Assembly: GCF_964204645.1 (NCBI RefSeq)
Contig: NC_134025.1
Span: 9,424,001-9,488,000, forward strand
DNA length: 64,000 bases
Source: Tubulanus polymorphus
Lineage: Eukaryota > Animalia > Nemertea
Direction of reading: 5' to 3'
Shown: positions 10,622-13,600 of the stretch, one piece after another
Position numbering within the stretch: the stretch's first letter is position 1
Layout: each line of letters starts with the position of its first letter
Made by a program: the position numbers and the translations under genes
Notes under the pieces: generated by a model
The model's database searches: none
Told to the model about the DNA's origin: nothing
The model's input: the letters and a program-made list of their open reading frames with translations, nothing else

Positions 10622-13600
10622 TTAAACTGAACCAAATTCATCCATCCATTTCTCATATTTCTCCAGATCGTCTTTAGACACCGACTTCGACACTTTCTTC
10701 ACAGCCATTTCGAAGTCGGCCATAGAAGTCGGTTCATGTACGAGTTCCTCCTGAGGAATATTACGGATCTGATCAGGTGTTAAACCTTTAATTCTTCGTC
10801 GCATTGCCATCATAGAAGCATCCCTAGATTGAAATAAGACAAAAGAGAAAATGGACTAAAAAATATTCTATGAACATAAGGGAATGTTACTTGTGACCAA
10901 TTCGATCTATTGAGACAGCAAATTAATAATAAAAATTGAGCCAGAATACTGATCAGATAAAATGTCAATCTACCTGCAAACATTAGTGATATCGGCCCCA
11001 GAATAACCATTCATATTCTTCGATATCTCTGCCAGGTCCACGTCTGTTCCCAATGTGACCTCTTTCAAGTTGATTTTCAACAAAGTTTCACGTCCCTCGG
11101 CTGCAATTAGGCGTAAAGTTATTAAAAATCACGTTTAAACATCCGAACCAAACACGAAATAGGTTACAAATCTCACGAGAAGGCAGCGGGATATAGATCC
11201 TTTTCTCAAGACGTCGACGCAAGGCTTCATCCAAATCCCATGGGAAATTAGTAGCAGCGAGGACCATAACAGTTTTTGTCGGGTCATCATTACCGCCATC
11301 AACTCCTACAGTAAAATGGTAAAAGATACAGAATAAACAAACATTAAGAGTTGCAGTTGAATTACTCAGGCATAAATTTCATCAGCCACTGGTTATATAT
11401 GCATATGAGCCTCGAATAATAGTGAAATGAGAGTTAATTCTCGGAAGCTATTTTTTGTACTATCTATCATGGCACATCAGTATATCATATATCTCACCGT
11501 CCATTTGAACGAGTAACTCGGATTTCACTCTACGACTGGCCTCGTGTTCGGAATCGGACCCTCGTCGAGAACACAGAGAATCGATTTCATCGACAAATAT
11601 CGTACTAGGAGCATAGAAACGAGCCTGAAAATAGCAGATGACACAAAATTCAATACACATTCTCCGACATAAAATACACTTCGACGACGCAGACACTTAG
11701 ACCATGAGAGTCCACCATATCAAAAGTGATTTGACTGCAAATCCATAATGTTATACAAAAGACTCGGGTTAGATTTTTTTGGGATTTTGGAATCAACATG
11801 CATTATATTTACTGGAGACAACGAGTACACTGATTTGAATGGAACCAAATGTACTACAACAAATACAAATACTTAGATTGCATTCAAAGTATTGCCATGG
11901 ACCCCTTGAGCCCGGTTTAATAGACCAGTCTTAACTAAAACCTGCGGTCAGTTTCATAGACAGGCATTTACTTTAACCCGGGGGCTAACTCAATTCATTT
12001 TCAATTGAGTTAACCCCCCGGGTTTAAGTAAATACCAGTCTATAAAACTGGCCCCTGGGTATTGACAATCAAAGGACAATCAAAAATAATACCCTGGAGC
12101 CAGTTGCACAGTCGTGACTTAAGTCCAAAAGCGGTCTTAAATCTGAAGACTGGTCTTAAGTTGTTAGATTAGCTATAGAACTAAGTTGGTCTTAGACTGG
12201 TCTTAAGTCTAAGCCATGACTATGCAACCGGCCCCTGGTACCTGAGATTAACATGCCATCAGTTATCAACAACATACATCAGGTGTATATGAGGGGCAGT
12301 GTTCGATCTCAAGAAAGATTCGGTAATTCACTGTTAGTAAACATGAACATTCCATCACCCAACCGTATAACAATACATGCACCATCACCAGGGGATAACC
12401 TTAATCTTACATGTAGTCGGACAGGACAGACATAAAATATGGATATAATAACCTGTATCATACCGGTTGTTCGATACTAACTTAACAAGATGATATCAAT
12501 CAAAATTGATGAATCAACTTGAGAGAAGGATTATAGATAAGTAAGGCTATGACAGATTGGCAACAAACTATAATGTCTTTATAGAGCATGTGCATTCTTT
12601 CGAAAAAATTCAACTAGGGTACAATATAAACATGCAGAGACATGACGCTCCCTCTACCATTTGTTGTCTTTACCATTTCAAACAATAATCGCACTAGTTT
12701 TTCAGACTCTCCGCGATATTTCGAAGCTAATGTAGTTGATGAGACACTGAAAAACGTTGTGCCACATTCTGTGGCAACGGCTTTTGCGAGCATGGTTTTA
12801 CCTGTACCCGGAGGACCGACCATTAAAACGCCCTGAAAAGGCAACACAACGAAAACCCAATCATACACTTGAATAGAATTTATATGCAGTGAAATAGCGT
12901 TAGAGTTGAATTTAGGATACTATTACCAGTGCATAGTGTCTGTTGTTTGTTGTTGAGCTGAAAATCAATGGATTCAATCATATTTGTTTTTGTTAAACAA
13001 GTCTCTTCATTCAAGTCTGGTTCAATTTGAACTCACTAAATAACATGTGACTGGTCATATCTTAATTTCTATAACGACCTCCATTCAAACTATATCGCCA
13101 TTTCACCGCATATTTCGTTACATATCGGCTTACCATTTCAAACAAAAGACGAACAAGTTTTTCTGATTCGCCCCTCCACTTAGACGAGAGAGTCGAAGAT
13201 GATACATTGAAAAATGTGGTGCCACATTCAGTGGCCACGGCTTTGGCCAACATAGTTTTGCCAGTACCGGGAGGTCCGACCATTAAAACACCCTAAAACA
13301 CAAACCATGATCACAAACTGCCCTGTCAGCATTATCAAATCTACAATCAGGGTAAACCATTTCTGTTCAATCAGTATAGCTTCATTATGACGCCCATCAC
13401 AGAGGCGGATCCAGGAATTTTGAAAAGCGGTGCGCGTTTCTGAGAAATCGCTCTAACTGTAGGCATAGCCGGACATTTTGAGAGTGGTAATAGATTAATT
13501 ATATTGTTTATACAAATTTTTAGAAAATTAGAAAGGTCAAAATTTTTTTGTTTTTTTTTCTATTTAGAACTAGGGGTCCAGGGACACCATGCCCACTTGG

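Follow-up and report, generated by a model that had tools for sequence, protein, structure and literature searches.

Tandem, probably mutually exclusive exons vary the pore-loop-1 tip of katanin p60 in a nemertean and other invertebrates

The DNA analysed here (the window, 64,000 nucleotides of contig NC_134025.1) comes from the nemertean Tubulanus polymorphus and carries on its minus strand a gene for the microtubule-severing enzyme katanin p60, in which the exon encoding pore loop 1 is present as two adjacent copies, 6A and 6B (Table 1). A ten-exon model containing 6A encodes 494 amino acids and is identical to the RefSeq protein P0123 (NCBI: katanin p60 A-like 1 isoform X1, Tubulanus polymorphus). 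Isoform X2 (493 amino acids) lacks nothing but one Gln, owing to the tandem acceptor of exon 4. Domain matches above the cut-off were the katanin MIT domain PF21126 (E 2.5e-31), the AAA domain PF00004, the lid PF17862 and Vps4_C (PF09336), and the best relatives of known structure were KATNA1 and KATNAL1 (E 1e-159 to 1e-155). The closest annotated proteins were likewise katanin p60. Judged by these matches, the gene product is a katanin p60 of the KATNA1/KATNAL1 type. A single-sequence AlphaFold model of P0123 was poor (mean predicted local distance difference test score 45) and was not used.

Both copies of exon 6 are 159 nucleotides (nt) long, begin and end in phase 0, and are bounded by AG/GT borders. 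Together with their spacing of 301 nt, this is what an earlier sequence-only reading of the DNA had described. That reading had each exon running from Walker A to pore loop 1; both elements are indeed covered, but the exon continues through the next helix (to ...LLFEM). Its tally of codon differences was reproduced as well. The 53 codons comprise 23 identical, 26 synonymous and 4 replacement pairs (N29S, S33T, S36A, W39Y), and the aromatic codons lie where it had placed them (Trp at 13178-13176, Tyr at 12718-12716). Divergence was calculated by the Nei-Gojobori method (NG86). The proportions of synonymous (pS) and nonsynonymous (pN) differences were 0.70 and 0.076, corresponding to a synonymous divergence (dS) of ~2.0, which is near saturation, and a nonsynonymous divergence (dN) of 0.08. 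This dN/dS of ~0.04, a check that had been proposed, and the intact splice sites of both exons bear out the view of an old duplication with purifying selection on 6A and 6B alike. Because the copies share only 77% DNA identity and the introns flanking each show no mutual similarity, they do not represent a haplotype or assembly duplicate. In the window, tblastn with three full katanins found neither a third copy nor any other duplicated katanin exon, as had been claimed. Adjacency, equal length and phase, canonical splice sites and an intact frame in each copy mark 6A and 6B as tandem homologous exons.

Table 1. Features of the katanin locus. Coordinates are positions in the 64-kb window.
Feature	Position	Strand	Remarks
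Coding exon 1	16284..16451	-	Start codon, MIT domain; gene model equals RefSeq protein P0123
Coding exon 2	15858..16018	-	Gene model, tblastn
Coding exon 3, linker	15386..15587	-	Gene model, tblastn
Coding exon 4	15195..15298	-	Tandem acceptor TAGCAG (15298/15295), one Gln added or dropped
Coding exon 5	15020..15125	-	Last shared exon ahead of the pair; phase-0 donor
Alternative exon 6A	13134..13292	-	Walker A to pore loop 1, KWRG; used by both RefSeq isoforms
Pore-loop-1 tip of 6A	13173..13178	-	Trp (TGG) Arg (AGG), residues 286-287, equivalent to MEI-1 W266/R267
Intron between 6A and 6B	12833..13133	-	301 nt
5' stem arm	13088..13113	-	Intron nt 21-46, 20 nt past the 6A donor; predicted 26-bp (base-pair) RNA stem
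3' stem arm	12882..12907	-	Intron nt 227-252; holds branch-point-like CTAAC (motif-based prediction)
Alternative exon 6B	12674..12832	-	KYRG; by position the copy carrying His (KYHG/KWHG) in most other species
Pore-loop-1 tip of 6B	12713..12718	-	Tyr (TAT) Arg (CGC)
Coding exon 7	11498..11624	-	Walker B, pore loop 2 with H327/E328; first shared exon past the pair
Coding exon 8	11177..11305	-	Gene model
Coding exon 9	10974..11100	-	Gene model
Coding exon 10	10622..10823	-	Carries the stop codon
Upstream neighbour gene	20857-17340	-	F-box, SMI1/KNR4 and ApaG matches; ends <1 kb before the katanin start
Dispersed repeat	~14580-14820		Site of the only contigs of RNA run X6
Tandem repeat	13639-14242		154-bp unit, 3.9 copies; intron ahead of 6A
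Nested inverted repeats	11941-12215		44-nt arms and shorter, small-transposon-like; intron past 6B

When longer proteins were searched with 6A, the top-ranked matches were gene models holding this exon twice. They came from eight species, namely Pinctada, two Saccostrea, two Mytilus, Tegillarca, Mya and the annelid Lamellibrachia, and in all of them K[Y/W]RG came first and K[Y/W]HG second. Equal-length annotated isoforms with all differences inside the 53-amino-acid exon were found in 17 other species (16 from RefSeq), comprising echinoderms, a hemichordate, molluscs, a brachiopod and a nemertean; these pairs are annotation models, known from annotation and not from reads. The nemertean Lineus longissimus has KWRG/KFRG. 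KWRG/KYHG occurs in Strongylocentrotus purpuratus, Lytechinus pictus, Lytechinus variegatus, Asterias rubens, Asterias amurensis, Antedon, Anneissia and Ptychodera, and KYRG/KYHG in Lingula, four Mytilus species and three of four Haliotis species. Apart from two to six residues, the isoforms of a pair are identical. Such a pair was present in 8 of 10 protein clusters of one set, the clusters of Branchiostoma and Acropora lacking it, and in 1 of 10 of another, four of which were singletons. Mutually exclusive use of the two exons, as the sequence-only reading had proposed, thus finds a counterpart in the isoforms of 17 other species, but not in the RefSeq record of Tubulanus polymorphus itself, where both proteins carry the KWRG exon.

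Among 109 further proteins, the named cnidarians, arthropods and chordates, each a single cluster representative, all had KYRG. The swap was not seen in the chordate, arthropod and cnidarian proteins examined, mostly one representative per cluster, and the event seems confined to lophotrochozoans and ambulacrarians. Several models were kept outside the counts: Orchesella P0013 and P0015 (two-gene or two-domain fusions) and P0014 (other borders), Babylonia P0272/P0300 (different contigs) and Myotis P0009. The last, a KATNA1 model of the bat Myotis davidii, repeats the same 53-amino-acid exon in two amino-acid-identical copies; the repeat is likely an artefact, and the model shows that the exon borders are kept in vertebrates. 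The Saccostrea RefSeq models P0004 and P0126, which bear the names titin or futsch-like, join katanin with both copies to a long protein encoded downstream and are likely misannotated.

Both copies are known from 24 named species of 13 lineages (17 isoform pairs, six tandem models and the window), across which the distinguishing residues were compared. In every one of the 24, the copies differed at position 39 or 40 of the exon, at the tip of pore loop 1. Position 40 (Arg/His) differed in 22 of 24 species and 12 of 13 lineages, position 39 (Trp versus Tyr or Phe) in 12 species and 6 lineages, and the next most variable position, 49, in 14 of 24 species. The exceptions at position 40 were the two nemerteans, Tubulanus and Lineus, which have Arg in each copy and vary in the aromatic residue instead. 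The W/Y swap on which the sequence-only reading had centred is confirmed and occurs in ambulacrarians and oysters as well, but it is too narrow a focus, since Arg/His is the more consistent difference. As far as these alignments tell, the W/Y pair is the lesser half of an older contrast of W/Y-Arg versus Y-His, and the window shows a derived nemertean state with Arg in both copies. The Arg codon of 6B (CGC) is one transition away from His (CAC), that of 6A being AGG, a pattern that weakly favours a point reversion of His to Arg in 6B. Of the two sea-urchin forms, KYHG is that of the curated entry NP_999733.1/O61577 and KWRG that of XP_011684099.1; we take O61577 to be the sequence of the 1998 sea-urchin katanin cloning paper. 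Of the motifs that the sequence-only reading had given for other katanins, KYRG was seen in human KATNA1 and KATNAL1, and W266/R267 was placed in MEI-1 by ungapped span mapping and by the literature. In Mya (P0012, P0125) and in a bivalve-like metagenome locus (L056), Trp stands in both copies, and it is the Arg copy that has changed faster (8-9 differences).

A scan of metagenomes for the His motif gave 69 loci, 59 of which matched the exon. Two intact copies were present at 10 of them, always Arg and then His; L058 has the same sequence as L026 and was counted once, leaving nine. Best matches of the two-copy loci were annelid-, bivalve- or echinoderm-like, a coarse assignment, and between their copies synonymous sites were saturated while pN was 0.04-0.15. 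A DNA tree of 20 exons grouped copy with copy in the close loci L006/L061, L039/L043 and L026/L059. In two echinoderm-like loci, L001 (258-659) and L008 (1024-1390), a decayed copy lies upstream of the His exon. These loci show the same copy order, and they show that the Arg copy can be lost; the decayed first copy fits the His-only records of sea cucumbers. Two further loci (L018, L020) hold katanin-like genes with KYHG in a single copy and a different, intron-poor layout. L002, L009, L013 and about 35 more of the 69 encode AAA ATPases other than katanin with KWHG or KYHG at this site, many of which presumably resemble fungal proteins of the spastin/fidgetin type.

The reading frame stays open with 6A or 6B alone (494 amino acids), with both (547) or with neither (441). 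All four routes being in frame, exclusion is not enforced by the frame. The intron between the copies may offer another basis. It measures 50, 52, 53, 55, 56 or 67 nt in six of the nine two-copy loci and is the shortest of its locus, the other introns spanning 83-1580 nt (borders approximate), and the read-through proteins P0006 and P0008 imply 54 and 60 nt. This short intron in related loci points to steric exclusion, so far as intron length can indicate it. In Tubulanus, the 301-nt intron is predicted to form a 26-bp stem with 24 of 26 positions paired on the transcribed strand, two of them as G-U. The fold z of the intron was -2.88 in sense and -1.19 in antisense. End to end, the duplex of the stem arms reached -36.2 kcal/mol, which was matched by 0 of 500 shuffles, and only 4 of 2124 window segments were as strong, one of them being the stem itself. 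With a second setting, the stem had a z of -6.5 compared with -1.8 to +2.0 for 26 control introns, five of which have inexact borders. Outside the stem, 20 nt before and 49 nt after it leave ~70 nt of intron. The best branch-point-like motif, CTAAC, sits in the 3' arm, where it takes in both unpaired positions of the stem; its A lies at -68 relative to the 6B acceptor. A docking/selector arrangement was not apparent: when either arm of the stem was paired with the flanking introns, 21-93 of 100 shuffles did as well.

We propose that the copies are kept from joining by steric interference. In relatives, the intron would simply be too short for splicing; in Tubulanus, the folded stem would hide the 6B branch point or leave a downstream one too near the 6A donor. 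With the stem formed, 6A could not join 6B and would be the default, which fits a RefSeq record that shows only 6A. For 6B to be used, some factor would have to unfold the stem and mask the neighbouring 6A donor. Dscam exon 17 is reportedly a case of steric hindrance with RNA structure. Around the pair, the introns on either side of 6A and 6B contain the repeats listed in Table 1, and the F-box, SMI1/KNR4 and ApaG matches of the upstream gene are in a layout that we take to be that of FBXO3.

The possible effect of the swap was considered on the pore of MEI-1. Exon positions 38-40 align without gaps with MEI-1 265-267, an offset that also fits the residues of Walker B and pore loop 2. In the accessible part of a simulation preprint (bioRxiv 10.1101/2020.11.25.398420), R267 is called invariant, the role of K265 is discussed, a salt bridge R267-E308 seen by cryo-electron microscopy links pore loops 1 and 2, and mutations at these pore positions lose ATPase and severing. 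The X-R-G motif of pore loop 1 is described as a positive surface recognising tubulin (review PMC8369831, in the text available). Given a putative ancestral contrast of K[W/Y]RG versus KYHG, His would take one fixed positive charge per subunit, six in all, out of the pore and would weaken the bridge between the pore loops. Together, these changes would alter the grip on glutamate-rich tails and the coupling of the ATPase, and His could render the grip pH-dependent. Trp versus Tyr or Phe would alter the stacking staircase; nemerteans would have lost His and kept this milder contrast. That function can tolerate His is shown by the lineages in which it is the only form and by related AAA proteins carrying KWHG. 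Whether the swap measurably tunes tail preference appears, from the residues involved, about evenly balanced.

On the whole, 6A and 6B are intact tandem copies, and we consider it probable that they are mutually exclusive and derive from one duplication before the protostome-deuterostome split, so that one gene would make two motors differing at the tail-gripping residues. As to origin, the simplest reading is a single event before that split followed by losses and local gene conversion, and in our judgement it is quite probable. The protostome-deuterostome split occurred more than 550 million years ago, and the switch is probably more than 500 million years old.

A number of observations weigh against this reading. 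Both RefSeq katanin proteins of Tubulanus polymorphus (2/2 cluster members) use 6A, and neither uses 6B. In GenBank and RefSeq, gene models of eight invertebrate species include both copies in frame; these look like prediction errors but may reflect true double inclusion. The pair is dispensable in some lineages, Arg forms only being found in Branchiostoma (6 members), Acropora (12), Drosophila (8), Panonychus (3), Lepeophtheirus (2) and Haliotis asinina, and His forms only in Apostichopus (2/2) and Holothuria (4/4 full-length members), to which the loss of the Arg copy in L001 and L008 is added. The metagenome loci were chosen for His and are a selected sample. Beyond the close loci, the exon tree does not sort the copies: first and second copies need five changes instead of one, and 57 of 500 shuffles are as low. 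Convergent duplication of exons in tandem is described as common in the accessible text of PMC9741552. On the splicing side, the branch-point position is predicted from its motif, and the stems in three other long introns (111, 214 and 442 nt) were only suggestive, being matched by 6, 49 and 76 of 500 shuffles and, with a second setting chosen afterwards, by 39, 7 and 7 of 200. Moreover, a 69-nt intron of the katanin gene in the window is spliced in this species, so that 67 nt is not clearly too short. The functional side is one that we infer from residues.

Some of these points would also be expected if the pair were ancient and real elsewhere while 6B in this nemertean were minor or fading, with W versus Y near-neutral after the loss of His and 6B seldom used. 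The 6A-only RefSeq record, the stem over the likely (predicted) 6B branch point and the loss of one copy in other lineages are in keeping with it, as is the fact that single-copy katanins work with either aromatic (human Tyr, MEI-1 Trp266), at least in the portions of the literature available. A fading exon, however, sits poorly with a dN/dS of ~0.04, silent sites near saturation and intact splice sites, and in Lineus, a distantly related nemertean, both isoforms are annotated and again differ as Trp versus non-Trp. We regard a minor 6B as unlikely, with some chance of being right.

A similarly low probability is given to independent duplications of the same exon in ambulacrarians, lophotrochozoans and possibly nemerteans again, with His arising convergently. 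The tree of exons does not separate the copies, lineage-specific residues are common to both copies in Mya, Lingula and Lineus, no pair was seen in the arthropods or chordates examined, and convergence is reported as frequent for this class of event (PMC9741552, accessible text). Yet every tandem case (eight named species, 10 loci) has the same exon, the same order and His, the decayed copy of L001/L008 also lies upstream of the His copy, and the shared lineage residues fit gene conversion equally well. Weaker arguments against repeated origin are the non-Ser33 or non-Leu49 that second copies of nemerteans share with many His copies, and the single step that separates the 6B Arg codon from His.

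It is also conceivable that the two proteins are equivalent in function and that the pair persists because it serves to regulate splicing or expression. Some species share ~51 of the 53 residues (Lingula), and His-only and Arg-only lineages are viable; but with every route in frame there is no decay switch, and in 24 of 24 species it is the tip of the pore loop where the copies chiefly differ. We consider equivalence very unlikely. An assembly or haplotype artefact or recent non-functional duplicate, for which Myotis davidii P0009 shows that such cases occur, is so improbable, in view of codon-structured divergence at 77% DNA identity, unrelated flanks and conservation across phyla, that we set it aside.

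Compared with katanin p60 of known structure (human KATNA1/KATNAL1, PDB 5zql, 5zqm, 6b5c; C. elegans MEI-1, PDB 5wc0, 6ugd) and with O61577, the protein of Tubulanus has the same MIT, AAA, lid and Vps4_C domains and the same K-aromatic-R-G type of pore loop 1 as the structures, for which there are here two alternative exons. In one isoform of many invertebrates, including NP_999733.1/O61577, His takes the place of the Arg that the simulation preprint (bioRxiv 10.1101/2020.11.25.398420) calls invariant. In adjacency, equal length and phase, conservative differences and great age, the pair resembles the tandem duplicated exon substitutions of FYN, CACNA1 and tropomyosin (Martinez-Gomez et al., PMC9741552, as far as its available text goes), and, as in FYN, the exon covers the ATP-binding region. 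That human and fly survey does not name katanin in its main text (0 occurrences) or in one supplement, which is probably not its gene table. Katanin may, like OGDH with its exons 4a/4b (PMC7969005), be an enzyme tuned by an exon pair with a short intron between its members; in OGDH the distance from donor to branch point is near or under the limit of ~50 nt. The difference is that relatives of Tubulanus have a very short intron, and Tubulanus itself a predicted long-range stem over the branch-point-like motif. No description of alternative katanin pore-loop exons was found in the literature searched, although the sea-urchin His may be commented on in alignments or supplements of the primary structure papers. 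Events of this class are known, and the case of katanin is apparently undescribed though present in RefSeq as X1/X2 isoforms. That the class is familiar and that the isoforms stand in RefSeq unremarked limits the surprise; the switch is unseen in human, fly and other main models.

A broader scenario is put forward tentatively, and we think it more doubtful than the pair itself. The ancestor shared by protostomes and deuterostomes may have made both an Arg-pore and a His-pore motor from its one katanin gene by splicing, as well as mixed rings, His giving a weaker, pH-sensitive grip on glutamylated tails. The founding sea-urchin katanin would then be the His isoform, chordates and arthropods would have lost the switch, and nemerteans would have rebuilt it as Trp versus Tyr/Phe, the choice being set by one RNA stem masking the branch point of 6B. 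The way in which severing enzymes recognise tubulin tails and their glutamylation is treated as an open question (PMC11695996; bioRxiv 10.64898/2026.05.28.728271, in their accessible parts). The exon pair offers a natural experiment on it, in which one gene would specify two near-identical motors that always differ at the substrate-gripping tip and are kept across phyla, and it names the residues, Arg/His and Trp/Tyr, for a direct test. Eggs of sea urchins and starfish are classical katanin material, and the reference sea-urchin katanin is one of two isoforms, the one without the Arg that has been treated as invariant.

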